From Thermodesulfovibrionales bacterium (GTDB lineage: Bacteria; Nitrospirota; Thermodesulfovibrionia; Thermodesulfovibrionales; UBA9159): 64,000 nt of DNA. The translations under genes were made by a program, and so were the position numbers. Shown in pieces: positions 1 to 16,792 of the stretch (within the stretch, counting starts at the first letter, position 1; each line of letters opens with the position of its first letter). The stretch is from NCBI GenBank assembly GCA_035622735.1, contig DASPUT010000077.1, forward strand, positions 2,645 to 66,644, in the 5' to 3' direction. The notes under the pieces were generated by a model that searched no databases, was not told the DNA's origin, and worked only from the letters and a program-made list of their open reading frames with translations.

Positions 1-1
1 A

Positions 2-562
2 TATCCGGGCAAGGGGACCGAACATCTTGTGCTGGAAGGTCGAACTATCATCGATGGGTTTAAGAACAAGGGATATCTTACCATCGGCTCTGGCGCCGTG
101 GGCTGGTTCAATCCCCAGAGCAGGACCGGCCAACTCCTGACCGAAGACTTCGACAAATTCTACTTCCCCGGCAACACGCATTCGCTCGCGAGACAGCTGG
201 ACTGGCTCGGGCATGAGCTGGTCGATCCGTCCAGGCCGGTGTTTGTATTCCTCAATATCGGTGAGACCCATGTCCCCTACTACTATGAAGGAGCACCGTG
301 GAATTGTGAAGTTAATCCGTGCGTACCCTTTTCCGAGAGCAATGATGCTGCAGAATGCCGCAGCCGTCAGAAAGCGTGTCTGGAATATGTCGACGCTCTC
401 CTGAAACCGCTCCTTGAGGCGTTCCGCGCTGCCACTACGGTAGTCTGCTCTGATCACGGCGACTGCTGGGGCGAAGACGGTCTGTGGGAGCACGGGATCC
501 ATCATGAGAAGGTACTGGAGGTCCCTTTGCTCTTCAGGCTCAACGGGGGTCAGCAGAGATAG
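2..562 (+). CDS. sulfatase-like (alkaline phosphatase superfamily) protein, C-terminal part; 5' end runs off the window
   Basis: The frame stays open back to nt 2, so the listed GTG at 29 is probably internal. The C-terminal block VCSDHGDCWGEDGLWEHGIHHE resembles the DHG...G.HG region of sulfatase-type hydrolases. Stop TAG at 560-562. Confidence 0.55.
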   Translation, partial: YPGKGTEHLVLEGRTIIDGFKNKGYLTIGSGAVGWFNPQSRTGQLLTEDFDKFYFPGNTHSLARQLDWLGHELVDPSRPVFVFLNIGETHVPYYYEGAPWNCEVNPCVPFSESNDAAECRSRQKACLEYVDALLKPLLEAFRAATTVVCSDHGDCWGEDGLWEHGIHHEKVLEVPLLFRLNGGQQR

Positions 563-2172: not shown

Positions 2173-2431
2173 GAGATCCTTCTTCCAGCCTACCGCCTCA
2201 CCTCTCATTTGGGATACAGATTCAAAATGAATCAGGGTCGCCTTCATGAAAAGCAATTTCCATACCATAATTTCAGGTTCGTAAATTGATATAAAACTAG
2301 GACATTGCTCGGTCCAACCGATCAATCTTGGGTAAAGAACTACATAGCATGGGAAACAAATGACACAAAGAGCGACGACCGTAGGCGAAGAGGCGTGAAA
2401 ATTGTTCCGGATTAGAGGAAGACCGAATCGC

Positions 2432-4168
2432 TCAGTGGATGACCCACTCGCTCCGTTTTACCAGTTCCGGATGGGGACCTTCGGTCAACTGAACAATGTA
2501 ACATCCCTTCGATGCATAGCGCTGTCCGGGGCCAAAACTCAACCGCGGATAGAGGACAACGTCATAGGACTGATCGGGCATCATATCGATCAGCTCAAGA
2601 AGACGGTCTCTGTAGTAATACCCCTTCAGCATACCGAGTTGCTCCGAGAGCATCCGAACAATATCATACATCTTGTACCCTATATCGATATTGGAAACGG
2701 GAAGTTTGTTGTTCCTGATCCAGGCCTTGACCCCGTCTTTCAGCCCTTTCCCTTCCTGGGGGAGTCTGTAAGGATACGTCACATACACAAAACTTCTCAC
2801 CTTCTCCGGCAGGGAATACAGATCTTGCCCCAGAATGCCCGATGAGACGAAGACCATGCCCGGTCGGTCTTGGACATCCACAAGCCCACCGATGGCAGAG
2901 AGGTCTTTCGGGCTCAGCCACAAAACGAGAATCGAATTTTTGTGCCGGCCGACCAGCTGCTTCCAGAAGTCTCCATTCACGATTTCTCCATTAGAAAGCA
3001 TGACATCTATGGGAAGGGGCTGGCCGAGGTTCTCCCGCGTCTCCCGAAAGGCTCTTGCAAGGGTGACGCCGGACCGGTCATTGCGAAAGACCTGGACGAC
3101 CGACAGATCGGGAGCAAGATTCTCCTCGATAGAGTGAAGATATCTTGCAACAGCCTCCCCTTCCTGATACAAGCCCTTGGAGAAATAAAGTGTATACCAC
3201 TCCGTGTCAGAGATCAGAGGGAAATCGGTAACGGGAAAGAAATTGGGGATCCGGTGCTCCTCACTAAATTCGTGGATAGGTGCCCAGTCGCCCGTGGTAA
3301 TTCCGCCCACAAGCGCAAAGACGGGCTTCTTTTGGTAATATTCTTCCAGCTGTTTTCGCCAGCCCTCCCGTGGTCCCTTCAACTCCCAGACATCGAGCGT
3401 CAGCCCTCGAAAGCCCTTGTCCATGACTTCCTCGGTAAATGGCCCTGTTTTGGCCCTCCTTGCCGCGTGCCGTGATTTCCCCCATGTTCTGGCATAAAAC
3501 TGAAGAGGTGCCACCATCGACTCACGGTCTTCTTTCTTCACTTCTTCCGTAACCACAGTGGCAAGGTGTATCGTCGTGTCGGTAACTCCGGGTGGCATCT
3601 CTGCGGTCAGGTTCTTGAGATAAAAGATCATAATCTCCATATCATGATCATCAAGAAAGTATCTCGGCATGACGCCGTTGAGTTTCCTACCGTTCGGATC
3701 TTCTCCTGCCCTCAGCGCAACCGCCAGCGTCTCGTCAGTGTATGCGGGGCGGAAGTCGCCGCTGAGAAGCATCTTGGGCAGTTTTTCCCGGGCTGACTTG
3801 CTCAGGTCTCCCATCATCGACATCGGTTTATAAAGTCTTGGACCGTCTATAGGAAAGGTATAGACCGTGCCTTCCAGCGATCCCATCCCGCTCCTTTGAT
3901 GACAGCTCACACAGCTGAACATCCTGCCGTCTACAGGGATTTCCCCCTCAAGAACAGCCTGCAGGGGCTCTCCTGATGGCAGTATCCCGTCACGATACAT
4001 CCGCTCCCCCTGCCGCAATGCCTCTTCCCGTGATACTCCTGCAATCGTGAGAGACTGTTTATCCTCGGCTGTAATTGTCCCTGACCAGAGAACGACGAGA
4101 AGCAGGGAAAGAATTCCCCATGCCAGGAACACCGCGACATCTTTCACCGACTGAAAAACCTTCCTCAC
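2432..4168 (-). CDS. periplasmic fusion protein: N-terminal mono-heme c-type cytochrome plus type I solute-binding (LivK-like) domain
   Basis: The GTG start overlaps the stop of the upstream SCO1 gene (GTGA at 4165-4168). Anchor/signal helix VAVFLAWGILSLLLVVLW. One heme motif, CVSCH. The remainder resembles branched-chain amino-acid-type binding proteins (PVFALVGGITTGDWAPIHEFSEEHRIPNFFP, YFSKGLYQEGEAVARYL). Confidence 0.65.
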   Translation of the reverse strand: MRKVFQSVKDVAVFLAWGILSLLLVVLWSGTITAEDKQSLTIAGVSREEALRQGERMYRDGILPSGEPLQAVLEGEIPVDGRMFSCVSCHQRSGMGSLEGTVYTFPIDGPRLYKPMSMMGDLSKSAREKLPKMLLSGDFRPAYTDETLAVALRAGEDPNGRKLNGVMPRYFLDDHDMEIMIFYLKNLTAEMPPGVTDTTIHLATVVTEEVKKEDRESMVAPLQFYARTWGKSRHAARRAKTGPFTEEVMDKGFRGLTLDVWELKGPREGWRKQLEEYYQKKPVFALVGGITTGDWAPIHEFSEEHRIPNFFPVTDFPLISDTEWYTLYFSKGLYQEGEAVARYLHSIEENLAPDLSVVQVFRNDRSGVTLARAFRETRENLGQPLPIDVMLSNGEIVNGDFWKQLVGRHKNSILVLWLSPKDLSAIGGLVDVQDRPGMVFVSSGILGQDLYSLPEKVRSFVYVTYPYRLPQEGKGLKDGVKAWIRNNKLPVSNIDIGYKMYDIVRMLSEQLGMLKGYYYRDRLLELIDMMPDQSYDVVLYPRLSFGPGQRYASKGCYIVQLTEGPHPELVKRSEWVIH

Positions 4169-5098: not shown

Positions 5099-5884
5099 AT
5101 GAAAAAAATATCGGTAGTGATGATGGCAGTGATGGCTATTTCAGTTTTGCTGGCGGTTCCGGCGTTCAGCGCGCCAAAGCTTATTGTGAAGGCCGCGAAC
5201 GGGACTGATGATGTTTTCCACGTGGAGGATACGGGGAATGTCGGAATCTTCTCTGGAATTACAAACCCGGCTGCGCCGACAGCACCGTTGAACATCGTCT
5301 CGGCAGGTTCGGGAAATCTCTTCACGATAACAACCACATCCCCGGCAGGAGGTGCAGGGTTTGAATTTAAAGTGCCGGGCGGCGGTGATTGGCTCTTCAG
5401 GGCAACTCAGGATAATGGGTTCAAGATAAGGGATGGGGCAAATGCGAAGGATGCGGTCTACGTTCAATTTAATACCGGCCATGTCGGGATCGGCACACTT
5501 ACTCCGGCCCATCCTCTCGTAATTTGTGCATTTCCGGGCTCGGCGACGTGCGTTTCTAATGACGGTACCACAACATGGACAGCTTCGAGCCGTGAATACA
5601 AGGAGAATATTCAGTCTTTACCCGCTGACAAGGCGATTGACGCCCTGAAGGACCTCAATCCTGTTACCTTCAGATATAGAGACATCCCCGACCAGCCGCA
5701 CGTCGGATTTATCGCAGAGGATGTTCCTGATTTGGTTGCGTCGAAAGACAGAAAGGCACTGAGTCCGATGGACATCGTGGCTGTCCTGACGCGAGTGGTT
5801 CAGGAGCAGAACAAGACTATCGAGGCGCTCTCGGCGAAGATCGACAGGCTCGAGAAAGCTTCAATGGACGGAAGAAAGTTTTAA
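5099..5884 (+). CDS. secreted protein with C-terminal peptidase S74 (tail-fibre/endosialidase intramolecular chaperone) domain
   Basis: AAGGAGGAGAGG lies before the ATG. Signal peptide MKKISVVMMAVMAISVLLAVPAFSA. C-terminal block SSREYKENIQSL...LNPVTFRYRD...HVGFIAEDVPDLV...MDIVAVLTRVVQEQNKTIEALSAKIDRLE matches the self-cleaving Ser-Lys chaperone domain. Confidence 0.7.
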   Translation: MKKISVVMMAVMAISVLLAVPAFSAPKLIVKAANGTDDVFHVEDTGNVGIFSGITNPAAPTAPLNIVSAGSGNLFTITTTSPAGGAGFEFKVPGGGDWLFRATQDNGFKIRDGANAKDAVYVQFNTGHVGIGTLTPAHPLVICAFPGSATCVSNDGTTTWTASSREYKENIQSLPADKAIDALKDLNPVTFRYRDIPDQPHVGFIAEDVPDLVASKDRKALSPMDIVAVLTRVVQEQNKTIEALSAKIDRLEKASMDGRKF

Positions 5885-5968: not shown

Positions 5969-6066
5969 ATGCCCCTCATGAAATCTCGCTTCTGATGACA
6001 ATTTGCCGCTGATCGGTTATTATATTGTGCGTTGAGAAGCCCAGACGCAGAGGAAATGTTGCGTTC

Positions 6067-8550
6067 ATGGAAAACGGCAAGAGACAAAGGGCCATAGGCA
6101 TCCTCGGTATGCACCGGAGCGGCACATCGGCGATTGCGCGGGCCGTAAATTTACTGGGACCGTACATAGGGCATGCGGATCATTTAATGAAGCCGATCGA
6201 AGGCGATAATCCGCATGGATTTTGGGAGCACTGGGCGGTCTTTTCCCTCCACGAGAGGCTCCTCACATTTCTTGCGAGATCCTGGGATGGCCTTCTTCCC
6301 CCCCCTGAGGGCTGGTGGAAACAGCCGGAAATAACTCCCTTTCACGAGGAACTGCGAAACCTCATAACCACCGAATTTGCAGGGCAAGACATTTGGCTCT
6401 GGAAAGACCCCCGAACTTCCTTGGTTCTGCCGCTCTGGAAGGAGGTCCTCCGCGAGCTCAATATCGACGCGCACTATCTGCTTTGCGTAAGAAATCCCGT
6501 GGACGTCGCTTCCTCGTTGTTGCGGCGGAACCATTTCCCTAAGGCAAAGTCGCTCTCCTTATGGCTGCTCTATACTGTGTCTTCTCTTTACTGGACGAAC
6601 GGCGCTAAACGTATCGTATTTCGTTTCGACGATCTCATTGAAAACTGGGAAGATTCTCTCAGAGAGGTTTCGACCTCGTTGGGCATCCCGTGGCCTCAGG
6701 ATGACCGTGGGCTCCGGAGATCCATGGCTGAGTTCCTCCGTCCGGAAGACCGTCACAGCAGTTCAGATGCTGAATTACTCTTCCATGACACGGAGATCGC
6801 TGAGCCCGTGAAAAGAATGTACCGACTGCTTCAACGATCGGTGGAGAAAAACGGTTTTACTGATTCCGACGAGTTCTCGAAAGAAATAGAAGAAATCTAC
6901 CGTGACTACTGTACCTATGCAGAAATCTTTACCCCTTTGCGCAATGAAGATAGGGCAACGCACAACCAAAATGCCGGGGGAAACCGCGATGCAATGATTC
7001 AGAGCTTGGGCCCTGTAGCTGAATTCAGGAAAGCAGAGGAAGTCAACCGGCTTGTGTTTCCCTCGTTCTCCCGTTACCGGGTGTCGATAGTTATCCCCGT
7101 TTGGAACCATTGGGAACACACCTACCGGTGTTTGCGGTCAGTAATGGCGAACACCGATGAGGTCGCGTACGAGGTTATCGTTATTGACAACGGATCTTCG
7201 GACGGCACCCAAGAAATGCTTGCGAAGGCAGAAAATATCAGGGTCTTGAGAAATCAAACAAACACCGGTTATGTCCTCGCATGCAATCAGGGTGCGGGAA
7301 TAGCCCGGGGCGAGTACCTTCTGCTCCTCAATAACGACGCGGAACCGCTGGAGGGGTGGCTCAGGGAACTTGTGGATGTCATCGATGGCGACGAGACAGT
7401 TGCGGCGGTCGGTGCAAAACTCGTATACGCCGACGGTGTGTTGCAGGAGGCAGGGGGGATGATGTTTCACGACGGACGCGGGTGGAATTTTGGGAAGGGA
7501 GACGACCCGAATGAGGATCTCTACAATATCCCCTGCGAAGTTGATTACTGCTCCGGCGCATGCCTGCTGGTGCGGATGGATCTTTTTAACCGCCTCGGCG
7601 GTTTCGATGTTCGCTATGCCCCTGCCTATTATGAAGACGCTGATCTCTGCTTCGCCCTGCGAAAAATGGGATACAGGGTCGTCTTCAACCCAAACGCAGC
7701 AGTCGTCCATCACGAATCGGTGACGGCGGGAGCAGACGAATCGTCCGGGTACAAAAAATATTTGGAAATTAACAGGAAGAAATTCGTTGAGAAGTGGCGT
7801 AATGAACTGGAACTCCAGGAACCACACCCTTCCGAGACGGGGAGGAGTCCGGTGACTTCCTGTCGCGAAAGGCTTGCAGGAAGTTCTCTATCGCCCGAAG
7901 ACGTTCTTCGTCTTTCACGAGGCGGGCAAGTGCTCCATGGACGTAATCTGGGTTCTCAGTTGCCTGACAGGCCCTTTCTCTATAAATCTCTCGCGGACAA
8001 GGAACATCAGTCAATTGAAGTCATCAAGAAGGCTGCCGGCTTTTATGGAGATGGACAGGTAGGCGTGGTCTGGACCGGCGATAAGGACTCGACCGCTATC
8101 CTTCAGATGATAAGACAGGCATATAACGGCCGTGTACCGTTTACGACAATCAGTCTCGAAGCGAATCCCGCATCTCCTCAGATGCGCGAGTTCATGGAAA
8201 GGCTTCAGCATGAGTGGGCATTTCATTTGGAGAGATTCGATGAGACAGGGTCGTCCCTGCAATCGGCTTCCCGTGATAGAGGTGCGGAACGTCGCGAATC
8301 CGATGCAGGAGAGGTACTCGACAGGGTGGTTGAAGTTTTGGGACTCAAGGCACTCATCATCGCGAAGAGATGGGATGAAGGAATAGCGGCGTCTCCTTAC
8401 AAGTATTTCACCCGTAGGGAAGATCCTCCCTACGTATGGGTTTACCCACTCCTTCACTTTAAGGAAGTGGATGTATGGCATTATATAAAAAAATATAGCG
8501 TACCTTTTTGCGACGTCAACGGGTTAAGAAACCGGCAACTATGCGCATAG
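6067..8550 (+). CDS. three-domain fusion: sulfotransferase-like + GT2 glycosyltransferase + PAPS-reductase-family (PP-loop) domain
   Basis: The ORF opens at TTG 6025, but ATG 6067 (MENGKRQRAIGILGMHRSGTS) is the more likely start. The N-terminal GMHRSGTS loop looks like a PAPS-binding loop. The middle domain is GT2 (VSIVIPVWNH...VIVIDNGSSDGT...LLLLNNDAEP...YYEDADLCFALR). The C-terminal domain has VVWTGDKDSTAILQMIRQAY and PLLHFKEVDVWHYIKKYSVPFC, which resemble CysH/CysD-family PP-loop proteins. Confidence 0.75.
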   Translation: MENGKRQRAIGILGMHRSGTSAIARAVNLLGPYIGHADHLMKPIEGDNPHGFWEHWAVFSLHERLLTFLARSWDGLLPPPEGWWKQPEITPFHEELRNLITTEFAGQDIWLWKDPRTSLVLPLWKEVLRELNIDAHYLLCVRNPVDVASSLLRRNHFPKAKSLSLWLLYTVSSLYWTNGAKRIVFRFDDLIENWEDSLREVSTSLGIPWPQDDRGLRRSMAEFLRPEDRHSSSDAELLFHDTEIAEPVKRMYRLLQRSVEKNGFTDSDEFSKEIEEIYRDYCTYAEIFTPLRNEDRATHNQNAGGNRDAMIQSLGPVAEFRKAEEVNRLVFPSFSRYRVSIVIPVWNHWEHTYRCLRSVMANTDEVAYEVIVIDNGSSDGTQEMLAKAENIRVLRNQTNTGYVLACNQGAGIARGEYLLLLNNDAEPLEGWLRELVDVIDGDETVAAVGAKLVYADGVLQEAGGMMFHDGRGWNFGKGDDPNEDLYNIPCEVDYCSGACLLVRMDLFNRLGGFDVRYAPAYYEDADLCFALRKMGYRVVFNPNAAVVHHESVTAGADESSGYKKYLEINRKKFVEKWRNELELQEPHPSETGRSPVTSCRERLAGSSLSPEDVLRLSRGGQVLHGRNLGSQLPDRPFLYKSLADKEHQSIEVIKKAAGFYGDGQVGVVWTGDKDSTAILQMIRQAYNGRVPFTTISLEANPASPQMREFMERLQHEWAFHLERFDETGSSLQSASRDRGAERRESDAGEVLDRVVEVLGLKALIIAKRWDEGIAASPYKYFTRREDPPYVWVYPLLHFKEVDVWHYIKKYSVPFCDVNGLRNRQLCA

Positions 8551-8661
8551 TCTTGCATGTAGCCGGGTCGATGAACATGTCGCCATGAAGCAATTTGACG
8601 GAATGAGAACACTTGTCCTGCGACAAATCAATCGGAATCCGGGCATGCAAAAGAGGTTGAC

Positions 8662-9375
8662 ATGAGCAACCTGAAAGGGCCGGAAATCAGCGTCAACGAA
8701 ATAATGCAAACAATAAAGGAAAGGCTCGAAAAGAGGAGGACATCTTCTCACCTCGAAAGATCGGATGATGAAAGAGAGCGGAGCATGGGCAATTCGGAGG
8801 GGGACCTGTTCCTCGATCAGGGTGACTTTCATAAGCCGTGTGACAAAGGAGTTATGGGTAATCTTCTCTGGAAATATGGCACAAAGTATGCCTTTTTCTT
8901 CAAGAGAGTTCCGATAATAAAGAATATCGCTGAAAAGTGGTACTGGAAATTGGCACGGGGACAAAACTCACCGGATGAGGTCGCTGCCGTTTCCTCCCGC
9001 CTCACCAACTCCGGATCCGATATCCTGGAAGCCAATCTGAATTATGACGGATTTCTGGAACAGCTGAGGAAGGAAGGGCTGAAGGGCAGAATCAAACTCG
9101 CGATATTTACTGTTATAGGTTTTTTCGCATGGTGGCAGGGACAGGTCAACAGAGCATTCTACGCGGCTTTGGCCAAACAGGAGGCGCAAATCGCTGAGAG
9201 GGATAGAACCATTAGAGATCTAGAATATAGACTTTCGGTGTTGAGTCACACAGAAGATGCTCTCTATGAAGAATTGACAAGCCAAAGGGCCGAGATCGCG
9301 AGACAGGGCAGAGAACTCTTGAAACATCGAAATGATCAACCGTTCGATTCGAAAGACGGCTCCAGGACTGAGTGA
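8662..9375 (+). CDS. hypothetical membrane-anchored coiled-coil protein
   Basis: AAGAGG lies before the ATG. One hydrophobic helix (IKLAIFTVIGFFAWW) is followed by a heptad-like segment (QEAQIAERDRTIRDLEYRLSVL...). It sits in the same strand block as the glycosyltransferases. Confidence 0.5.
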   Translation: MSNLKGPEISVNEIMQTIKERLEKRRTSSHLERSDDERERSMGNSEGDLFLDQGDFHKPCDKGVMGNLLWKYGTKYAFFFKRVPIIKNIAEKWYWKLARGQNSPDEVAAVSSRLTNSGSDILEANLNYDGFLEQLRKEGLKGRIKLAIFTVIGFFAWWQGQVNRAFYAALAKQEAQIAERDRTIRDLEYRLSVLSHTEDALYEELTSQRAEIARQGRELLKHRNDQPFDSKDGSRTE

Positions 9376-9438: not shown

Positions 9439-12400
9439 ATGAAAAAAATTCTCTCTTTGAATTTCTTCCCTGCCTTTACGCCGCCCGCGAGCGGCGGTGA
9501 ACTACGCTACTTTCATATGTATTCCAGACTGAGCGAAAACTTTGATGTGACGCTCCTTTCCCCGACGCATGTCGATCATGAATTCGAAATCGTAACGCAT
9601 TCCGATACATTCAGAGAATACAGAATACCAAAGGAAGAATCCATTCACAACATACTACATCACAGGCTTGCCGAAGAAGGGGTGTGCTCTGAAGTCTCTG
9701 CTCTGGCCTGCGCCCTGAGTTCGGCATATCCCAATGCGTACCATAGACGTTATTTGGAGCTCTGCGAAGGGGCCGATGTCATCGTGCATGAATCTCCCTA
9801 TATGCTCGGATATGACCTGCTATGGAGATTTGATAATAAGCCGAGGATCTACAACAGCTACAATGTTGAATACCGGCTGATGAAGCAGCTCTACAGGGGG
9901 AAATGGGCTGGACAATATTTACAATATATTTTCAGTCTCGAAAAGAAAGCCGCTCTCGAATCGGACATTTTGTTTGCCACGTCCGACGAAGAAAAAAAGG
10001 CATTTCTTGAATTATATGGTGTGCCGGCGGAAAAGATTAAATTAGCCCCTAACGGAATTGATCCCGATAGTGTGATTGTCACTGCGAAAAGAAGAGAAAA
10101 CTCCGTCCTTTTTCTCGGGAGTCATCATCCTCCGAACGTTGAAGCAGCCGAATTTCTTGTTAACAAAGTCGCGCGCAGATGTCCGGGAATCGATTTTCTT
10201 ATTGCCGGAAGTTGCGGTGATACTCTTAAGAGGAATTCACTTGGGAAAAATGTGCACCTGCTCGGCAGGGTTGACGAGAAGACAAAGAAAGAACTCCTTT
10301 CGACGAGTCAGGTTGCCGTTAACCCGATGTTCTCCGGCGCAGGCACAAACCTGAAGACCCTGGAATTTCTGTCTGCGGGACTGCCGTTACTTTCAAGCGA
10401 TACGGGGGTTCGAGGACTTTCACTGCGGGACGGAGAACATTACCTGAAGGCCGATAAGGACAATTTTGCAAAAAAACTGATAAACCTGATCGGGGATGAT
10501 GCCCTGAGAGAGAGGATATCCCGTTTAGGCCGTCTTCACGTCAATGAGAAGTATTCGTGGAGAGGAATTGCAGAATCGGTGCGGCATGAGATCAACGCAC
10601 TGCCCGGCGACAGAAAGGGCGGCAGGAAGCTCATTCTTGTGCTGAATGATTTCAGTGCGTCCAAACCGTCGGGCGGCGGGGAAATGAGAATCAACAGGTT
10701 GTACGGCGCATTATCCCGTTATCATGACGTGGCATCCCTCTGCTTAAACGATTCTTCACGACTGATACGGTCTGCTATCACCCGGACATTCACGGAAATA
10801 TCCTTTCCTAAGACGCAGGAACATGTAGCTGAGGAAAGCCGCGTTGCGAAACTATCTTGGATCGGTGCGTCCGACATAGTCAGCTCGTATATGTGCGTAA
10901 GGAATCAGTTTTTCCTGAGTGCCCTGAAGGCCTTTTATAGAATTGCGGATCTGGTTGTGTTGTCTCACCCATACATGTCCCTCGCATTGGAGAGTTTACG
11001 AGGGAAGCCTCTGATTTACGAGGCTCTCAATTTTGAATTCGGACTAAAGAATAGGATCTTAAGAGATCACCCGTTATTCGAGACCTTGGTTGACCAAGTA
11101 AGGTACGTTGAGAAAACCGCCTGTAAACGGAGTTCCCTATTCATTGGCGTCTCCGGGGAGGATGTCGCGAGCCTGGCACAATTTGCTGGGCTTGACGGTA
11201 AGCCTTCATACGTTGTAGAAAACGGCGTCGATCTGAAAGGCGAAGAATTCTTTTTAGACACATTTGCAGATGTGAGGAAGGTTCTGGGCGGCCGCAAGTC
11301 CGTCCTCTTCATCGGAAGTGGACATTCTCCGAACGTCGCAGCAGTAAACTTCATTGCAAACGAACTCGCCCCGGCATTGCCTCATCACATTTTCTTGATC
11401 GTCGGAACGGTCGGTAATGCCTTTAGACAGCGTGAGGTACCGAAGAACGTCCTCCTCTTCGGAAGAATCGATGAGGAGTACAAAAAAGTATTATTGAGGA
11501 TCGCCGACGTGGCAATCAACCCTATGATCGAAGGCTCAGGCTCCAACTTGAAGCTTCCTGAATATCTTGCATATCGATTACCGACAGTGACAACGAAAGT
11601 GGGGGCGAGAGGCTATGATGTGGAAGACGGAAAAGAAGTCATAATTTGCGAGCTGCGAGAATTTGCGGACAAGATAGATTATCTGTTGGGGCATGATGAA
11701 TTCAAGCAGATGTTGTCCGGGCAAGGGTATGCATATGCCCTTCGCAAGCTGGACTGGAATGTTCTTGCCGAGAACTATTTGTCTATTCTGGAACACACGT
11801 TTTTTAAAGAAGAGAAGAAAAAACTATTGGTTCTCACCTACCGGTTCACTACCCCTCCCCTCGGCGGTGCGGAGGTCTATCTTCTTAGCCTCTTACGGGA
11901 AATTGACAGACTGGCCGACTTTTCCGTGACCGTCGCAACTCTTGATATTCGTGACATACTAAATAAGTACCATTTCTCTGCCGCATATACATTCGATGAC
12001 GCACCCCTCGCGCTGCCGGACATGCAGCACACTTCAGTCTATAAATTCAGATGCAAAGGAATATCTGATGATGTGAAACTGAAAGGTGCGAGGAGACTTT
12101 TCAGACGCTGGATGGAAGAATTCGTTCTCTCTTCCCTGCGGCATATCGATGCGTATACGGCCCCGTTGCTGATGGGCGGGTGGAATTTTCCGGAGAGAGC
12201 CGACGGGCGCTGCGAAATTTGGTCAAGCGAGGTTTCGTACATCTACGTAGCCGGAACGGAAGAAATAGAGATGGAAGGGTATTGCCCCCACAACGGGGAA
12301 CTATCGGTTTTATCCGAGGGCGAAAAAACATTATATGAAAAGAAACTGACGGGCAAGTTTCATGTTCGCTTTAAGACGGACGGCAGCAGATGGATAAAGC

Positions 12401-13533
12401 TACGAATCAACCCCTTTACGGCTCATGAAGATCCGAGGCCATTGGGTGTCAGAATATCCAGTATCAAATACTGGATGAACGGCCAATGGTACGACCTCGA
12501 CCTCAATTATAATTACAGGGACTTTTTGAAGGAAAAGTATTTGGAAGAATATATCGAAGAACTGATCCGGACCGCCGGAGCGAGGCCGCGGGAATATGAC
12601 GCTTTGTTTCAGCACGTCCGCGGGCCTCTTTCGCCCGAACTGGAAGGTTGGCTTGATAGAAACGTTGCGAAGTTTGACATCGTTCTGGGCCACAGCATTC
12701 CCTTCTCCACCTCCGTTCTCGCGGCCACTTTTGCAAGGAAATATGAAAAGCCGTTGATAATGCTTCCCCATTTTCACATGGATGACGAGTTTTATCACTG
12801 GAAATCATATTACGAAGCCCTCACGGCGGCAAATGCGGTTCTCGCATCCCCTTCGATATCGATTGATCTGTTCTTCAACAAAATAGGGGCTAAAGCAATG
12901 TATCTGCCCGGAGGCATTGATTCACGAGAACATGAAGACAGTGCCCCTTCAGCCTTCTCTCACCTCTATAACGGCAATCTTCCCTTCTTCCTGGTTCTCG
13001 GCAGAAAAGCGGGGAGTAAGAATTATAAGTGGGCGATGGATGCATTACAGGATATTAATCGAGATGGCAAATTGTGCAACCTTGTTCTCATAGGAAAGGA
13101 CGAGGACGGCGAGAGAATTGATGCGGGCGATGCATTGTATCTGCATGAACAACCGAGGGATGTTGTTTTGGGTGCCTTGAAGGAATGTATGGGCCTAATC
13201 AATATGAGCGAAAGCGAGAGTTTCGGGCTCGTTCTCCTCGAGGCGTGGATGGAGAAGAAACCCGTTATCGTGTATGGGAACTGCGCTGCATTTGCCGAAC
13301 TCGTTGACGATAGGGTAAACGGCCTACTGGCAAACAGGGAGAGCCTGGCGGATAAGATCAGATTCATTTTGGAAGAGCCCGCTCAGGCCGCGGAAATGGG
13401 GAGAAGGGGATTTCAGAAAGTCCAGGAACAGTATACCTGGGAAGCAATCGGGAAAGAGGTCAACAATCAGTTGCTGCTGCAGATGACGAGAAACGAGCAA
13501 ACACCGAAGGTAGGGCCTGGAAGGGATGTATAA
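9439..13533 (+). CDS. giant glycosyltransferase with three tandem GT4 (GT-B fold) modules
   Basis: Three module starts share the same pattern: MKKILSLNFFPAFTPPASGGELRY (9439), KLILVLNDFSASKPSGGGEMRI (about 10630) and KKLLVLTYRFTTPPLGGAEVYL (about 11815). Each module ends with a GT4-type C-terminal half. Examples are VAVNPMFSGAGTNLKTLEFLSAGLPLLSS, VAINPMIEGSGSNLKLPEYLAYRLPTVTT and MSESESFGLVLLEAWMEKKPVIV. Confidence 0.8.
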   Translation: MKKILSLNFFPAFTPPASGGELRYFHMYSRLSENFDVTLLSPTHVDHEFEIVTHSDTFREYRIPKEESIHNILHHRLAEEGVCSEVSALACALSSAYPNAYHRRYLELCEGADVIVHESPYMLGYDLLWRFDNKPRIYNSYNVEYRLMKQLYRGKWAGQYLQYIFSLEKKAALESDILFATSDEEKKAFLELYGVPAEKIKLAPNGIDPDSVIVTAKRRENSVLFLGSHHPPNVEAAEFLVNKVARRCPGIDFLIAGSCGDTLKRNSLGKNVHLLGRVDEKTKKELLSTSQVAVNPMFSGAGTNLKTLEFLSAGLPLLSSDTGVRGLSLRDGEHYLKADKDNFAKKLINLIGDDALRERISRLGRLHVNEKYSWRGIAESVRHEINALPGDRKGGRKLILVLNDFSASKPSGGGEMRINRLYGALSRYHDVASLCLNDSSRLIRSAITRTFTEISFPKTQEHVAEESRVAKLSWIGASDIVSSYMCVRNQFFLSALKAFYRIADLVVLSHPYMSLALESLRGKPLIYEALNFEFGLKNRILRDHPLFETLVDQVRYVEKTACKRSSLFIGVSGEDVASLAQFAGLDGKPSYVVENGVDLKGEEFFLDTFADVRKVLGGRKSVLFIGSGHSPNVAAVNFIANELAPALPHHIFLIVGTVGNAFRQREVPKNVLLFGRIDEEYKKVLLRIADVAINPMIEGSGSNLKLPEYLAYRLPTVTTKVGARGYDVEDGKEVIICELREFADKIDYLLGHDEFKQMLSGQGYAYALRKLDWNVLAENYLSILEHTFFKEEKKKLLVLTYRFTTPPLGGAEVYLLSLLREIDRLADFSVTVATLDIRDILNKYHFSAAYTFDDAPLALPDMQHTSVYKFRCKGISDDVKLKGARRLFRRWMEEFVLSSLRHIDAYTAPLLMGGWNFPERADGRCEIWSSEVSYIYVAGTEEIEMEGYCPHNGELSVLSEGEKTLYEKKLTGKFHVRFKTDGSRWIKLRINPFTAHEDPRPLGVRISSIKYWMNGQWYDLDLNYNYRDFLKEKYLEEYIEELIRTAGARPREYDALFQHVRGPLSPELEGWLDRNVAKFDIVLGHSIPFSTSVLAATFARKYEKPLIMLPHFHMDDEFYHWKSYYEALTAANAVLASPSISIDLFFNKIGAKAMYLPGGIDSREHEDSAPSAFSHLYNGNLPFFLVLGRKAGSKNYKWAMDALQDINRDGKLCNLVLIGKDEDGERIDAGDALYLHEQPRDVVLGALKECMGLINMSESESFGLVLLEAWMEKKPVIVYGNCAAFAELVDDRVNGLLANRESLADKIRFILEEPAQAAEMGRRGFQKVQEQYTWEAIGKEVNNQLLLQMTRNEQTPKVGPGRDV

Positions 13534-14341
13534 CGAAAAAGATGATTTCCTCCATCATGAGAAGGAAATAGCCGATTTCCTTTTGTTCCTCAAGAGGGCT
13601 GAGGTAGGCACCCGTGATGGGATGACCGTCTTAGACATCGGTGCCGGTCAGGGAATGCATGCAGGCTTTCTTGCTGAGCATTTTCAGGATGTCTATTGTT
13701 CCGATATCATTGATTACACTTCTCTGTACGGCGGAGAATTTTTCAAACTCCTGCAAGAGAAGTATGCGAGGAATGGTTATCGCATCAATCTGTCGAAGGT
13801 TCACTTTATCAGAGCGGACGGCATGAACTTGATCTTCAGGGACACTTTTTTTGATATGATTGTTTCCTTTAATATGTTCGAACACGTTCCCGAGCCTGAA
13901 ACTGTGCTGAAAGAAATGGTACGGTGTGCAAAAGATGGGGGCTATATCTATATCCAGTTTGATCCGATCTGGACCGCCGACACCGGAAGCCACTTTTTTC
14001 ACCGAGTTCCGGAACCGTGGGCGCATCTTGTTTACAGCGATGACGAGTTTGTGTCGAAGATGAGGACAAGCGGCGCCCCGGAGAGTGAGACCGAAGAATA
14101 TAGGAACGCCATGAACAGGAAAAGGGTGCTTTACTACCGGACGCTCATCGGAAACCTAGTAAAGAGAGGCGATATTCACCTGATCAGTCAAGAATTTTGG
14201 AGCGGCCTCTCCCATGAAAACCATAAAGACCACCCTTTCTTCAAAAGGTGTTTACAGAGAGGATTTCATGAGGAAGAACTGTTGTTACGGGGCGGGCGGG
14301 TCTTGCTCGGAAAAGGGAAGAGGCCACTGGACAAAAAATAG
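13526..14341 (+). CDS. class I SAM-dependent methyltransferase
   Basis: The start overlaps the previous gene by 8 nt, with GGAAGGG upstream. SAM motif I is VLDIGAGQGMHAGFL. FDMIVSFNMFEHVPEP is a typical post-II/III block. Confidence 0.8.
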   Translation: MYNEKDDFLHHEKEIADFLLFLKRAEVGTRDGMTVLDIGAGQGMHAGFLAEHFQDVYCSDIIDYTSLYGGEFFKLLQEKYARNGYRINLSKVHFIRADGMNLIFRDTFFDMIVSFNMFEHVPEPETVLKEMVRCAKDGGYIYIQFDPIWTADTGSHFFHRVPEPWAHLVYSDDEFVSKMRTSGAPESETEEYRNAMNRKRVLYYRTLIGNLVKRGDIHLISQEFWSGLSHENHKDHPFFKRCLQRGFHEEELLLRGGRVLLGKGKRPLDKK

Positions 14342-14488
14342 CACATCGCAGCGATGATAATTTGTGTTTTTCGGCAAGATAGATTTTATAGCAATCAATG
14401 AAATTGACATAACCACGTCTCAGGTCGACGTTAAAGAATGGAGCACTTTTCAAGCTGTATCATAGCTGTAAATTCGACGCGGAGTCAC

Positions 14489-16792
14489 ATGAAGGCTGAA
14501 ATTCGAAAAACTGCCCTAACATTATTGTTTTCCGGGATCGCACTCTGTTTGGCCGCTTACTCTCTGCGGCCGGTGTTGTACTCCGGCTATTATTTCGATG
14601 ACAGTCTTAATTCGCTTCTTAGAGCACATCTATCGGGAGAAGGGAAATCATTATGGAATCACCTTTATGAAACGGCGACGAGTTTCCCGCAGGGAAGATT
14701 TGGCCCTTTGAGCGCGGGCAGTCGCTTTCTGGTACATTACATATTTCATGAGGTGGAGTATTATAAGGTCGCCATTTTGACCGGAATCGTTGCAAACATC
14801 GCATTTTTTGGCTATTTTTTAAGGCGTTTCACAGGGTCCTTCAACTTGGCCATGGCTTCCATGCTTCTTATTCCAATCTTTTTTCAGATCAGAAATTATC
14901 ATGACCCGATCACCTCATACAATCTGCTGCTGCAACAGATGTGCTTTCTGCTGTTTGCATCCCTCATTTTTTTCCACGCTTTTCTTGCTAAGAAGAAACT
15001 TTCCACCTTTTTGGCAAGTGCGATATGCTATCTGTCGGCACTGCTGACTTACGAGATTGGCTTTTCATTCCTCATATTTTTTTTTATTCTGGCCTGGCAT
15101 CACCACAAAAATCTTATCGCTTCTCTGAAGACGACGGCTCCCCTCGTCTTCCTTACCATCGCAGTGCTTGCGGTGAACATGTACGCAAGGATGCAGTTTC
15201 CCGCCCATTATTCCGGGGTGAAGGCTAACCTGAAAGTCGAAGCGCTATTCACTGCCTTCTTCGAACAACTGTGCGGGGCGCTTCCCCTGAGTTATTATTC
15301 CCAGGTGAAGGGGCCTGTCCTTGCCTTCCTTGCTGCCTCGGACGTCGGGTATGCGCTGATCCTGTTCTCCCTGTGCTTGTATTTCCTGAAAAAAACGGGC
15401 GATGAGAAAATTGAGCCGACGTGCCTGATAATTTCTGGTTTTGCGCTGTGGGTCCTGCCGGCATGCGTAATCGCCCTGTCAGAAAAGTATCAGAATGAAC
15501 TTACTTTTGGAACAGCATACCTTCCCGTGTACCTTCAATACTTTGGATTGCTTATGCTATTGATGGGCGTTTTCTCCGCCGTTTACGCTCATATTAATTC
15601 ATTCCGGGTAAAGAACCTCATTGCCGTTCTGGTATCGTTTATGGCCGCGGCTATCGGGCTGATAACTATGGCACATAATAAGGCTATCGTAGAGGAGATG
15701 AATCTCTCGTGGAAATATCCACGGGAAGTGTTGGGGTTAGCCCTAAAGAAGGGCTTAGCCGCTGAAATTCCCACAGACTCAATAATCTGGGTGTCCGCTC
15801 AGGGTCCTCATCCCGCCTGGTACCTCTTTGCGAATAAGGACTTTTTTTACCAGTATTCGGGAAAGACTTTCACGGTTCTTCATGAAAGAGACGGTGTGAT
15901 ACTCAGAGGGAACGTAGTGAATGAAAAAAATGTTTTGGGGAGGAGTGAGTTGAATGCCTTGTCCGGAAGAATTGAGTATGTGATGAGTTATTCTTCGACC
16001 CGGAGAGATGCGGGAATAGTTCTCTTATCAAGAGTTAAAAACTCACTGTTGAGTCCTAATGCCTCCGGACACGAACATGGCCCGGGCGATGTGGAAGTAA
16101 CGGTGGATAAGGTTTTCACCGTGAATGGGACAAAGCAGCGAATGCTGAACTATTCAGGAAACAATGCTCCTCCTGGAACGTCGTTGGAAAAAGGAACTGC
16201 CGGTGTCGCTCATTACCTTTTCATCGAGGGGTCGGGGTATGATGCCGCCCATGGAATAGTGGGGTATGCCAGCCGAAAAGGAGTTTCCGGGGAACATACA
16301 CGGTGTATTGTTTTCGGCCCTGTCACTTTGCCCGACAGGTTTCATGTGGAAATAGTCTTAAGACCTCTTCAGGATCAAGTGCCCTATGCGAACATCATGG
16401 GTAATCGTGGCTCGGATAGTTCGTACGAGGGGTTTGCCATAGAACAGGACGGCGAGAATCAGAATACGTTCTCCCTTGTCGTCGGCGATGGAAGGGAGTG
16501 GCTCCCTTCCGCCACATTTCGAGTCGATCCCCAGGCATGGAATTATCTGGCTTTTTCAATAAACCGACATGTCGTTAAGAGCTATGTCAATGGCAAATTA
16601 ACGGGGTCTGTTCGCCTAAAAGGCCCCCTCAGGAATAGCGCCATGCAGGTATACGTCGGAAACCGGGCAAATTTTGACCGCCCATTTCATGGACAGATCG
16701 GGGAGGTGATCATTGGGGAAGGCGATCTCCCGACAAAAGATACCTCGATGAAGTGGCTGCAAATGAACGATAATCTTCGAAGTTCCCGATAA
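14489..16792 (+). CDS. polytopic membrane protein (GT-C-like) with C-terminal LamG/concanavalin-A-like lectin domain
   Basis: The ORF opens at 14438, but ATG 14489 has GGAG 6 nt upstream. The first ~420 aa contain many hydrophobic helices, with an early loop motif YYFDDSLNS. The C-terminus QAWNYLAFSINRHVVKSYVNGKLTGS...VYVGNRANFDRPFHGQIGEVII has the LamG pattern. Confidence 0.65.
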   Translation: MKAEIRKTALTLLFSGIALCLAAYSLRPVLYSGYYFDDSLNSLLRAHLSGEGKSLWNHLYETATSFPQGRFGPLSAGSRFLVHYIFHEVEYYKVAILTGIVANIAFFGYFLRRFTGSFNLAMASMLLIPIFFQIRNYHDPITSYNLLLQQMCFLLFASLIFFHAFLAKKKLSTFLASAICYLSALLTYEIGFSFLIFFFILAWHHHKNLIASLKTTAPLVFLTIAVLAVNMYARMQFPAHYSGVKANLKVEALFTAFFEQLCGALPLSYYSQVKGPVLAFLAASDVGYALILFSLCLYFLKKTGDEKIEPTCLIISGFALWVLPACVIALSEKYQNELTFGTAYLPVYLQYFGLLMLLMGVFSAVYAHINSFRVKNLIAVLVSFMAAAIGLITMAHNKAIVEEMNLSWKYPREVLGLALKKGLAAEIPTDSIIWVSAQGPHPAWYLFANKDFFYQYSGKTFTVLHERDGVILRGNVVNEKNVLGRSELNALSGRIEYVMSYSSTRRDAGIVLLSRVKNSLLSPNASGHEHGPGDVEVTVDKVFTVNGTKQRMLNYSGNNAPPGTSLEKGTAGVAHYLFIEGSGYDAAHGIVGYASRKGVSGEHTRCIVFGPVTLPDRFHVEIVLRPLQDQVPYANIMGNRGSDSSYEGFAIEQDGENQNTFSLVVGDGREWLPSATFRVDPQAWNYLAFSINRHVVKSYVNGKLTGSVRLKGPLRNSAMQVYVGNRANFDRPFHGQIGEVIIGEGDLPTKDTSMKWLQMNDNLRSSR

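Follow-up and report, generated by a model that had tools for sequence, protein, structure and literature searches.

The stretch analysed here, hereafter the window, comprises 64,000 nucleotides (nt) of a Thermodesulfovibrionales bacterium (assembly GCA_035622735.1, contig DASPUT010000077.1, positions 2,645 to 66,644 of the forward strand). At 6067–8550 it carries a gene for a single polypeptide in which a domain with the fold of sulfotransferases dependent on 3'-phosphoadenosine 5'-phosphosulfate (PAPS), a family 2 glycosyltransferase (GT2) and a domain of the CysD/CysH family (PF01507) follow one another. The gene and its parts, with the evidence for each, are as follows.

6067–8550, plus strand: gene for the three-domain protein (open reading frame (ORF) list and translation; exact match to P0001, a public protein of a Thermodesulfovibrionales metagenome-assembled genome (MAG))
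6088–6762, plus strand: sulfotransferase-fold domain, residues 8–232 (sub-cut-off Pfam match, profile, AlphaFold2 (AF2) model, Foldseek)
6109–6129, plus strand: MHRSGTS, residues 15–21, candidate 5'-phosphosulfate-binding loop (H16, R17, S18, G19 and T20 invariant in alignment A3)
6490–6516, plus strand: RNPVDVASS, residues 142–150, candidate 3'-phosphate-binding motif (R142, P144 and S150 invariant in A3)
6763–7056, plus strand: helical cap and linker of the sulfotransferase domain, to residue ~330 (continuation of the N-terminal domain)
7069–7821, plus strand: GT2 (GT-A) glycosyltransferase core, residues 335–585 (PF00535, PDB matches, invariant acidic residues)
7981–8520, plus strand: CysD/PAPS-reductase-like domain, residues 639–818, short and depleted of motifs (PF01507, profile search of the PDB, AF2, Foldseek)
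8071–8094, plus strand: WTGDKDST, residues 669–676, at the PP-loop position, where the canonical motif is SGGKDS (ortholog alignment)
8489–8611, plus strand: decayed remnant of a fourth module, in the +1 frame and with a stop (tblastn of residues 870–910 of P0002)

The three-domain gene is intact, conserved and rare

The ORF is uninterrupted and encodes 827 residues from an ATG at 6067, or 841 from an alternative TTG at 6025. The sequence GAGGA sits ~12–16 nt 5' of the ATG, and we favour this start since it is where both the public gene prediction and the alignment of orthologs begin. A first-pass annotation, made from the sequence of the window, had described one polypeptide with three domains, as is indeed found, and every string that it quoted is present: ILGMHRSGTSAIARAV (residues 12–27), VVWTGDKDSTAILQMI (residues 667–682) and PLLHFKEVDVWHYIKKYSVPF (residues 794–814), together with IVIPVWNH, VIDNGSSDGT, NNDAEP and YEDADLCFALR of the GT2 part (residues 341–532).

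An identical 827-residue protein, P0001, annotated 'glycosyltransferase', occurs in a Thermodesulfovibrionales MAG, and two contigs assembled independently of each other from different samples (ERZ27251271, 86.5 kb; ERZ27251257, 17 kb) both encode it. Eleven further proteins with 51–57% identity cover 98–100% of the window protein or its GT2 and C-terminal parts. An unindexed search of 1.84 billion representatives added two more fragments, bringing the set to about 14 orthologs with shared architecture, all with the same domain order and none with internal stops; the search for this architecture in other genomes that the first-pass annotation had suggested was thus fruitful. A full-length match was present in only one of 185,579 GTDB species representatives, another Thermodesulfovibrionales MAG, and in a genome scan with the full-length query one true ortholog stood among relatives that mostly had the GT2 part only. 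With ~14 orthologs, yet a single full-length match among those representatives, the architecture is real, conserved and rare. Literature searches for this architecture, for sulfotransferase–glycosyltransferase fusions and for PAPS-reductase-like pseudoenzymes found no direct precedent, and a PDB search with the whole protein detected the GT2 domain alone.

The first-pass annotation had left room for an assembly chimera of separate genes. It is not a chimera: contigs from two samples carry identical copies of the gene, and ~14 orthologs have the same architecture. An artefact of any kind, including a pseudogene fused from separate genes, is next to impossible given these uninterrupted orthologs and three domains that all fold confidently or score significantly, although the 3' end does show a decayed former module (see below).

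An N-terminal domain with a sulfotransferase fold

Pfam family Sulfotransfer_3 (PF13469) matched residues 11–210 of the window protein over profile positions 3–215 of 216, with a score below threshold (20.8 bits versus a cut-off of 27). In P0002, PF00685 similarly reached 20.8 bits versus a cut-off of 22, and several relatives of the N-terminal family carry PF13469 in precomputed Pfam. A PDB search with the single sequence of the N-terminal 328 residues gave chance matches to peptide deformylase, which were rejected; a family profile and a model were needed. The profile was made from A3, an alignment of 36 diverse sequences of the N-terminal domain family. At the top of its list of PDB matches stood sulfotransferases alone (E from 4e-4), and the family motif VRNPlDVAaSL aligned with VRNPKDTAVS of the cytosolic sulfotransferases. 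The AF2 model of the domain was of high quality (predicted local distance difference test (pLDDT) 92.7, predicted template modelling score 0.90). Its best 50 Foldseek matches in the PDB were all PAPS-dependent sulfotransferases (E down to 1e-5, template modelling (TM) score about 0.45–0.5), including TPST1/2, the sulfotransferase domains of CurM and OLS, SULTs, StaL/Teg14 and Stf0/Stf9.

Invariant in A3 were H16-R17-S18-G19-T20, N48, G51, W73, D114-P115-R116, R142, P144, S150, R154 and H230. In this fold the HRSGT loop and the R142...S150 pair would lie at the PAPS 5'-phosphosulfate and 3'-phosphate sites, respectively. By its position and by what is established for sulfotransferases, HRSGT is the candidate 5'-phosphosulfate-binding (5'-PSB) loop. 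E54 or H230 is a candidate for the catalytic base. The top PDB matches of the profile, the modelled fold with its Foldseek matches and the invariant PAPS-binding motifs agree, and for this reason we regard the sulfotransferase assignment as well supported by sequence and model despite the sub-threshold Pfam score, with sulfotransferase activity as a prediction. The N-terminal sulfotransferase signature reported by the first-pass annotation is borne out in the same way. Of the families in the domain scan that it had proposed, PF00535 and PF01507 exceeded their cut-offs, and Sulfotransfer_3 fell short, with fold and motifs backing it. The domain resembles the TPST, CurM and Sulfotransfer_3 enzymes in fold and in having the invariant P-loop-like HRSGT and the R...S pair at the expected positions; it differs from them in its Pfam score below the gathering threshold, in its identity of <20% to solved structures and in its fusion to a glycosyltransferase.

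Two proteins of the ortholog alignment A1, P0003 and P0004, have ~80–100 extra N-terminal residues (columns 1–115). The P0003 extension begins with MFIIFGAPRSGTTLL, which resembles a second, canonical sulfotransferase 5'-PSB loop. These extensions may represent a fragment of a duplicated sulfotransferase domain or a mis-called start.

A complete GT2 core in a family of modular enzymes

The central domain matched PF00535 over residues 340–497 with 99.2 bits versus a cut-off of 23.3 (E = 3e-28), and its PDB matches were chondroitin synthase, GalNAc-transferases and PglI. D374, D379, D424, E426, E523 and D526 were invariant in 12 orthologs (motifs D424-x-E426 and E523-D524-x-D526); judged by position, these acidic residues would fill the DxD-type and acceptor ED roles. 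The complete GT2 core described in the first-pass annotation is therefore present with its acidic residues intact. It is also the most conserved domain of the protein (68% mean pairwise identity, 36% invariant columns).

Nearly all of the 120 best homologs have a sulfotransferase-like N-terminus. N-terminal modules ahead of the GT2 domain in its relatives include a methyltransferase (P0031) and sulfotransferase-like domains (P0013, P0052; in P0017 together with a B12-radical S-adenosylmethionine (radical-SAM) domain). Their C-terminal modules are usually family 4 glycosyltransferases (GT4) or GT2, and GT4 is the usual third module of enzymes that join a sulfotransferase-like domain to GT2. In P0017 (1360 residues) the added domain is of the B12-binding radical-SAM type and precedes both the sulfotransferase-like and the GT2 domains. 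The pairing of sulfotransferase and GT2 is thus common in modular glycan-assembly enzymes, and in the window protein the third module alone is unusual.

A short PF01507 domain that ends early

PF01507 (PAPS_reduct) matched residues 667–816 with 34.6 bits versus a cut-off of 22.5. When a profile of 12 orthologous C-terminal regions was compared with the PDB, CysD (1ZUN, E = 3e-16) came first, followed by human flavin adenine dinucleotide (FAD) synthase (8ROM) and then by plant, bacterial and yeast adenosine 5'-phosphosulfate (APS)/PAPS reductases. The AF2 model of the domain (pLDDT 82.8) contained one disordered loop, at construct residues 111–118, and Foldseek aligned it to FAD synthase, CysD and APS/PAPS reductases with TM scores of 0.65–0.69. 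Membership of PF01507 and the adenine-nucleotide alpha-hydrolase fold are established at the level of profile and model. The assignment of this domain to the CysH/CysD/PAPS-reductase family in the first-pass annotation accordingly holds, with CysD as the nearest solved relative.

CysD was also the best named relative in NCBIfam, below cut-off with both models (PRK05253, 52.9 bits versus 195; TIGR02039, 24.7 versus 396.6), and only positions 8–153 and 163–200 of the 301-position CysD profile were matched. The two share the fold, and the PP-loop region and the P.L.[FW].E.D.W.YI helix align; however, the C-terminal part of CysD with its ...GYF end is gone from the window protein, and the PP-loop is variable within the clade. 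The domain ends straight after ...YIKKYSVPF (terminal residues ...VPFCDVNGLRNRQLCA), about 10 residues past a helix common to the CysH reductases. The APS/PAPS reductases (CysH; 2GOY, 4BWV, 2OQ2) belong to the same Pfam family and have the same fold, but the window domain lacks both their CC...CxxC iron-sulfur cluster motif and the C-terminal segment that carries the catalytic cysteine. By these features of its sequence it is not a PAPS/APS reductase.

The early end, the absence of a GCxPCT-type tail and the TGDKDS at the PP-loop, all of which the first-pass annotation had remarked on, were confirmed. A local truncation of the third domain was considered as the cause and rejected, as all orthologs have the same end point, and no remnant of a GCxPCT/GYF tail was found in the in-frame sequence past the stop. 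On the ortholog alignment, the early end is a trait of the whole clade.

Motif loss and rapid change in the third domain

The PP-loop was canonical in only 2 of 14 clade members, among which the sequences TGSEES, TCGEDS, ICDEVS, AGDENS, SGGKDS, TGGNDS, SGGKDV, VGDIGS, TGRYDS and others occurred. Of its residues W669 alone was invariant, and S675 was at least 90% conserved. All 14 lacked the DT, CC..LK and LY.GYRSLGCxPCT motifs and the GR..DKE..LGYF tail, and the R.DE motif was kept sporadically (RWDE in the window protein). The remaining invariant positions were mostly in the hydrophobic core, with K645, H797 and D802 in addition; K645, S675, H797 and D802 are conserved in active-looking relatives as well. 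A locus search seeded with the C-terminal alignment was not possible, as no stretch of 7–10 columns was conserved enough.

The domain also changes faster than the rest of the protein. Its mean pairwise identity was 40%, versus 66–68% for the sulfotransferase and GT2 domains, and its fraction of invariant columns 9%, versus 31–36%. In each of the 55 ortholog pairs it was conserved less than either of the other two domains, and in the eight closest of these pairs it showed 1.4–2.1 times as many differences per site. In the closest pair it was still 83% identical, and no ortholog had a frameshift or stop in it. Since the motifs have been lost and the rate is raised while the domain is never interrupted, it would appear to be under selection to exist and fold, and not for the chemistry of its relatives. 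Our order of preference is a non-catalytic structural or docking role, then nucleotide binding and, far behind, catalysis. The proposal of the first-pass annotation that the fusion carries its own sulfonucleotide-handling domain is not upheld, with motifs lost clade-wide, a variable PP-loop and R.DE, and the fastest evolution of the three domains in every pair. Its narrower suggestion, that the domain binds adenylyl sulfate rather than reducing it, survives in part: the domain is not a reductase, and binding is possible, but no conserved binding residues support it.

That suggestion is essentially one in which the domain is a non-catalytic binder of PAPS, 3'-phosphoadenosine 5'-phosphate (PAP), APS or ATP that serves the sulfotransferase domain by feeding it, sensing its substrate or relieving product inhibition. 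The model still shows the fold with good confidence, TGDKDS and RWDE remain in the window protein, the four residues conserved in both the clade and its active-looking relatives (S675, K645, H797 and D802) might contribute, and fusion to a PAPS-dependent enzyme supplies a functional rationale. Yet a selected binding site would normally leave conserved polar residues, whereas the PP-loop glycines, the lysine of CC..LK and the C-terminal basic tail are absent or unconserved among the orthologs, and the stretch corresponding to the CC..LK loop of relatives varies, is missing from the ortholog P0005 and has a model pLDDT <50. We consider such a role rather unlikely.

The domain could instead be an active, minimal CysD-like ATP sulfurylase/adenylyltransferase that forms APS, or some other adenylylated intermediate, on the spot, and would so make the protein a self-sufficient sulfation machine. 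CysD is its best relative in NCBIfam and the PDB, close relatives with full motif sets lie in glycan clusters (for example P0126, beside Wzm/Wzt), and dedicated sulfate activation has a precedent in NodPQ, which supplies PAPS for NodH. Against this stand the score of 52.9 bits versus 195, the missing C-terminal third of CysD including its tail, the motifs unconserved among orthologs and the raised rate. The APS so formed would moreover need a kinase to give PAPS; an APS kinase was not found by the cysC search described below, and a CysN partner was not noticed on reading the ORF translations of the window, which was done without a dedicated search. An active enzyme of this kind is very improbable.

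Remnant of a lost fourth module

Half of the orthologs have an extra module of ~110 residues after the third domain (...LSYHWIDKNG..FDG.RT...LEFD.VQEGV.WF...), without a Pfam match. During the search for a GCxPCT/GYF tail a trace of this module surfaced unexpectedly in the window. Residues 870–910 of P0002 (KNVSKAFWFSGGDSDGGSNINLSYHWIDKNGKMVQFDGMRT) matched the window translation (KNIAYLFATSTG and ETGNYAHSLACSRVDEHVAMKQFDGMRT, on the two sides of a stop) with 39% identity over 41 residues (tblastn, E = 8e-4 in the 64-kb window). The remnant spans the last 20 codons of the gene, the stop codon and a 111-nt spacer, and encodes ...SLACSRVDEHVAMKQFDGMRT..., which matches NLSYHWIDKNGKMVQFDGMRT of P0002 (MKQFDGMRT versus MVQFDGMRT). 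On account of this decayed 3' end we regard the window gene as derived by truncation from an ancestor with four modules; the window copy would have lost a beta-rich C-terminal module that the long orthologs still possess. The truncated form is identical in both samples.

Motif-complete relatives and atypical sulfatase-like proteins

An exhaustive profile search with the C-terminal domain retrieved 1464 relatives, 305 of them at E ≤ 1e-10. The nearest that are not fused to glycosyltransferases are either stand-alone proteins of ~200–230 residues or proteins of ~650–850 residues with the order sulfatase-like, DUF4214, PAPS_reduct. This short PF01507 subfamily (P0123–P0141) contains the closest relatives of the window domain (found by the clade profile at E-values of 1e-30 to 1e-56), shares with it the EK..S..VI helix and P.LHF, and is likewise found in glycan clusters. 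In contrast to the glycosyltransferase-fused clade, most members retain the motifs and the tail: the sulfatase-like-fused proteins and most stand-alone ones have the full set of [FW][ST]GGKDS, xIDTxxxFPE, CC..LK, R[WR]DE, P.LHF.E.D.W.YI....PYC.LY..GYRSLGCxPCT and GR..DKE..M..LR.LGYF. We take the last of these to resemble the C-terminus of E. coli CysD, and the four cysteines are arranged as in iron-sulfur APS reductases. None of P0123–P0141 reached any cut-off in an NCBIfam scan. One motif-complete fusion, P0126 (10001–12211 in locus L019), immediately follows wzm-wzt and is succeeded by GDP-sugar, methyltransferase and GT4 genes. The position after wzm-wzt is the usual place of a chain terminator, and for this reason fusions of the P0126 type are the more interesting target.

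A sulfatase-like gene also stands near the three-domain gene, as the window opens within it.

1–562, plus strand: 3' part of a gene for a 284-residue atypical sulfatase-family (alkaline-phosphatase superfamily) protein (Pfam Sulfatase, 37.7 bits)

The full 284-residue gene, seen at 2273–3127 of locus L001, has a Pfam Sulfatase match above cut-off. It belongs to an operon just upstream of the window in which a stand-alone Sulfotransfer_1 gene and a radical-SAM/SPASM gene also lie. Its product (motifs LDSCRYD, TYGSHASMFVG and SDHGD) lacks the C/S-x-P-x-R formylglycine motif; T-Y-G-S-H aligns there, and T-T-x-x-H in the fused relatives. The 284-residue protein and the PF01507-fused sulfatase-like domains share [IL]D[SNT]xR[YH]D, T-x-x-x-HAS-x-F-x-G and SDHG[ED], which suggests an alkaline-phosphatase-superfamily enzyme with a threonine nucleophile. 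With the formylglycine signature replaced by Thr...His, the protein says little about sulfate ester hydrolysis. The sulfatase-like gene at the window start, which the first-pass annotation had cited in favour of a sulfated glycan, is thus real as a Pfam match and weak as support for sulfate metabolism.

These proteins raise the question of whether the third domain docks the separate sulfatase-like protein, or the small protein encoded downstream of the three-domain gene, in a multi-enzyme complex for glycan modification. Fusions of PF01507 to sulfatase-like domains (by way of DUF4214) are frequent, a Rosetta-stone type of argument, and the fused domains share the Thr...HAS.F.G and SDHG motifs with the 284-residue protein. 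An ortholog of the latter with 78% identity, a conservation that exceeds that of the three-domain enzyme, lies at 7964–8785 of locus L003, two genes upstream of the gene for P0005, an ortholog of the three-domain protein from the complete genome OY970295.1 (Thermodesulfovibrionales MFD01299), and all four loci compared retain the small downstream gene. However, the sulfatase-like gene is present in only two of the four, lies ~5.5 kb off in the window in a different transcription unit, and has weak direct similarity to the fused sulfatase domains (one match at 17 bits). Docking of this particular kind is improbable. We give equally little credence to a broader idea, that the short PF01507 subfamily is a new kind of glycan-modifying or chain-terminating enzyme of which the window domain is the nucleotide-binding or docking half. 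If the idea were true, its chemistry might begin with ATP-dependent activation of sulfate or phosphate, which an alkaline-phosphatase-type domain would then transfer; the third domain together with the 284-residue protein would in that case provide a PAPS-independent or self-supplied route to a surface glycan, sulfated or capped in a similar way, in a lineage of sulfate reducers.

Genes around the three-domain gene

Four loci with the three-domain gene, the window among them, were compared. The genes next to it in the window are as follows.

5099–5884, plus strand: small secreted protein with a C-terminal Peptidase_S74 (intramolecular chaperone) domain (PF13884, 42.6 bits)
8662–9375, plus strand: conserved 237-residue protein with a hydrophobic segment ahead of a charged helical tail (no Pfam match)
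9439–13533, plus strand: 1364-residue protein with several GT4 modules (Pfam families)
13526–14341, plus strand: S-adenosylmethionine (SAM) methyltransferase (Pfam), overlapping the GT4 gene by 8 nt
14438–16792: 784-residue polytopic membrane protein with a C-terminal Laminin_G_3 (LamG) domain (Pfam), directly after the GT4 and methyltransferase genes

A gene with an S74 domain adjoins the three-domain gene or lies within about 2 kb of it in all four loci. The window product has a signal peptide, its S74 domain is of the endosialidase-chaperone type, and it may form a trimeric surface fibre that is a possible target of glycosylation. In L003, L004 and L005 an ortholog of the 237-residue protein (38–46% identity) is encoded just downstream of the three-domain gene or a short way farther on; L003 and L005 have extra paralogs, and the L005 ortholog a weak HmpF match. 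A scaffold or ruler protein is possible. L004 has an equivalent multi-GT4 protein of 1334 residues; in L003 and L005, GT4 and methyltransferase are encoded by separate genes. The LamG protein may be a transferase or polymerase acting on the periplasmic side of the glycan system. On reading the translations, genes resembling those for GDP-mannose 4,6-dehydratase and mannose-1-phosphate guanylyltransferase, and further GT4 genes, appeared to come after these in the window.

Sulfate supply was searched for in the same DNA. With a manually entered E. coli CysC sequence as query, no cysC was found in the 64-kb window or in the loci, so that the cysC check proposed in the first-pass annotation came out negative within this DNA. 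Nor was a second PF01507 gene present in the window or loci. No cysN, sat or complete cysD was noticed while the ORF translations of the window were read, a reading made without a dedicated search.

The arrangement invites comparison with polymerase-terminator assembly, in which an N-terminal modifying module, a methyltransferase, kinase or Kdo (keto-deoxyoctulosonate) transferase, caps chains made by glycosyltransferases, often together with coiled-coil scaffold proteins (PMC11231755). K. pneumoniae O7 ORF6, O12 WbbB and E. coli O9a WbdD/WbdA, like the window protein, have an N-terminal module that is not a glycosyltransferase, followed by glycosyltransferase modules. The GT2-domain homologs sit in methyltransferase-GT2-GT4 and sulfotransferase-like-GT2-GT4 proteins. 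The module order of the window protein is compatible with a terminator-plus-glycosyltransferase plan, and the gene clusters with multi-glycosyltransferase proteins and methyltransferases and is followed by a conserved small helical protein, as at the polymerase-terminator loci. WsaE of Geobacillus is another modular enzyme of this type. Unlike these enzymes, the window protein has a sulfotransferase fold as its N-terminal module and ends in a module that is not a glycosyltransferase. Moreover, a tblastn search with Wzm and Wzt of L019 found neither in the window or in loci L001–L006, a difference from the terminators of systems dependent on ATP-binding cassette (ABC) transporters. With no Wzm/Wzt in the window or close homolog loci, the analogy is only organisational. 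Literature searches for sulfate as a chain terminator found no report.

Discussion

The window protein belongs to a known class of modular glycan-assembly enzymes, and what is unusual in it is the CysD/CysH-like third module. We judge it somewhat probable, from sequence and models, that it is a bifunctional enzyme that adds a sugar and a sulfate, probably on a glycan of the cell surface, and has retained a third domain that is probably non-catalytic. It would be a soluble, cytoplasmic enzyme with two working catalytic modules. The GT2 module would add a sugar, taken from a nucleotide-sugar donor, to a lipid- or protein-linked glycan under construction; the neighbouring GDP-mannose 4,6-dehydratase-like and mannose-1-phosphate guanylyltransferase-like genes hint at its donor and acceptor. 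The N-terminal PAPS-type sulfotransferase would sulfate the same glycan and, by analogy with the polymerase-terminators, may install a capping or decorating sulfate. The C-terminal module, presumably descended from the PF01507 enzyme family, would be structural or docking and at most nucleotide-binding, and probably does not activate, reduce or transfer sulfate.

Several points weigh against this interpretation. The window protein itself keeps a near-canonical PP-loop and RWDE. Some genuine members of the family moreover bind nucleotides while lacking part of the lost motifs: human FAD synthase lacks the DT motif in the profile–PDB alignment, and E. coli CysH has a degenerate PP-loop. Motif loss in the third domain thus lowers the likelihood of ligand binding but leaves it, and even an unusual catalysis, conceivable, since FAD synthase binds nucleotide without a canonical PP-loop or DT motif. 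The sulfotransferase domain scores below the Pfam gathering threshold, the absence of cysC from the window and loci and the failure to notice sat in the window bear on the PAPS supply, and Wzm/Wzt were not found. In addition, the O-antigen cluster of Aeromonas salmonicida has a gene with a sulfotransferase domain, and the published glycan lacks a matching sulfate (PMC4483657); because of this case, a sulfotransferase-like domain in a glycan locus is no proof of a sulfated product. The sulfated glycan that the first-pass annotation had predicted is nevertheless a reasonable expectation, because the gene sits in a glycan-biosynthesis cluster, although the arguments that it drew from the third domain and the sulfatase-like gene are weak.

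Bacterial sulfated glycans are, to our knowledge, rare, and beyond cyanobacteria, rhizobia and mycobacteria there is little information on their enzymology. A match to PF01507 in a protein such as this one should not be read as a capacity for sulfate reduction or activation. CysD/CysH-like domains have been recruited repeatedly into glycan-assembly proteins, apparently active when fused to sulfatase-like domains beside ABC exporters and degenerate here. The short PF01507 family therefore offers a natural comparison of active with vestigial members, in which the sulfatase-like-DUF4214-PAPS_reduct fusions are the better experimental target. The locus itself belongs to a large uncharacterised family of enzymes that join sulfotransferase-like and GT2 domains, and which may add sulfate to glycans as a decoration or as a chain-terminating cap.

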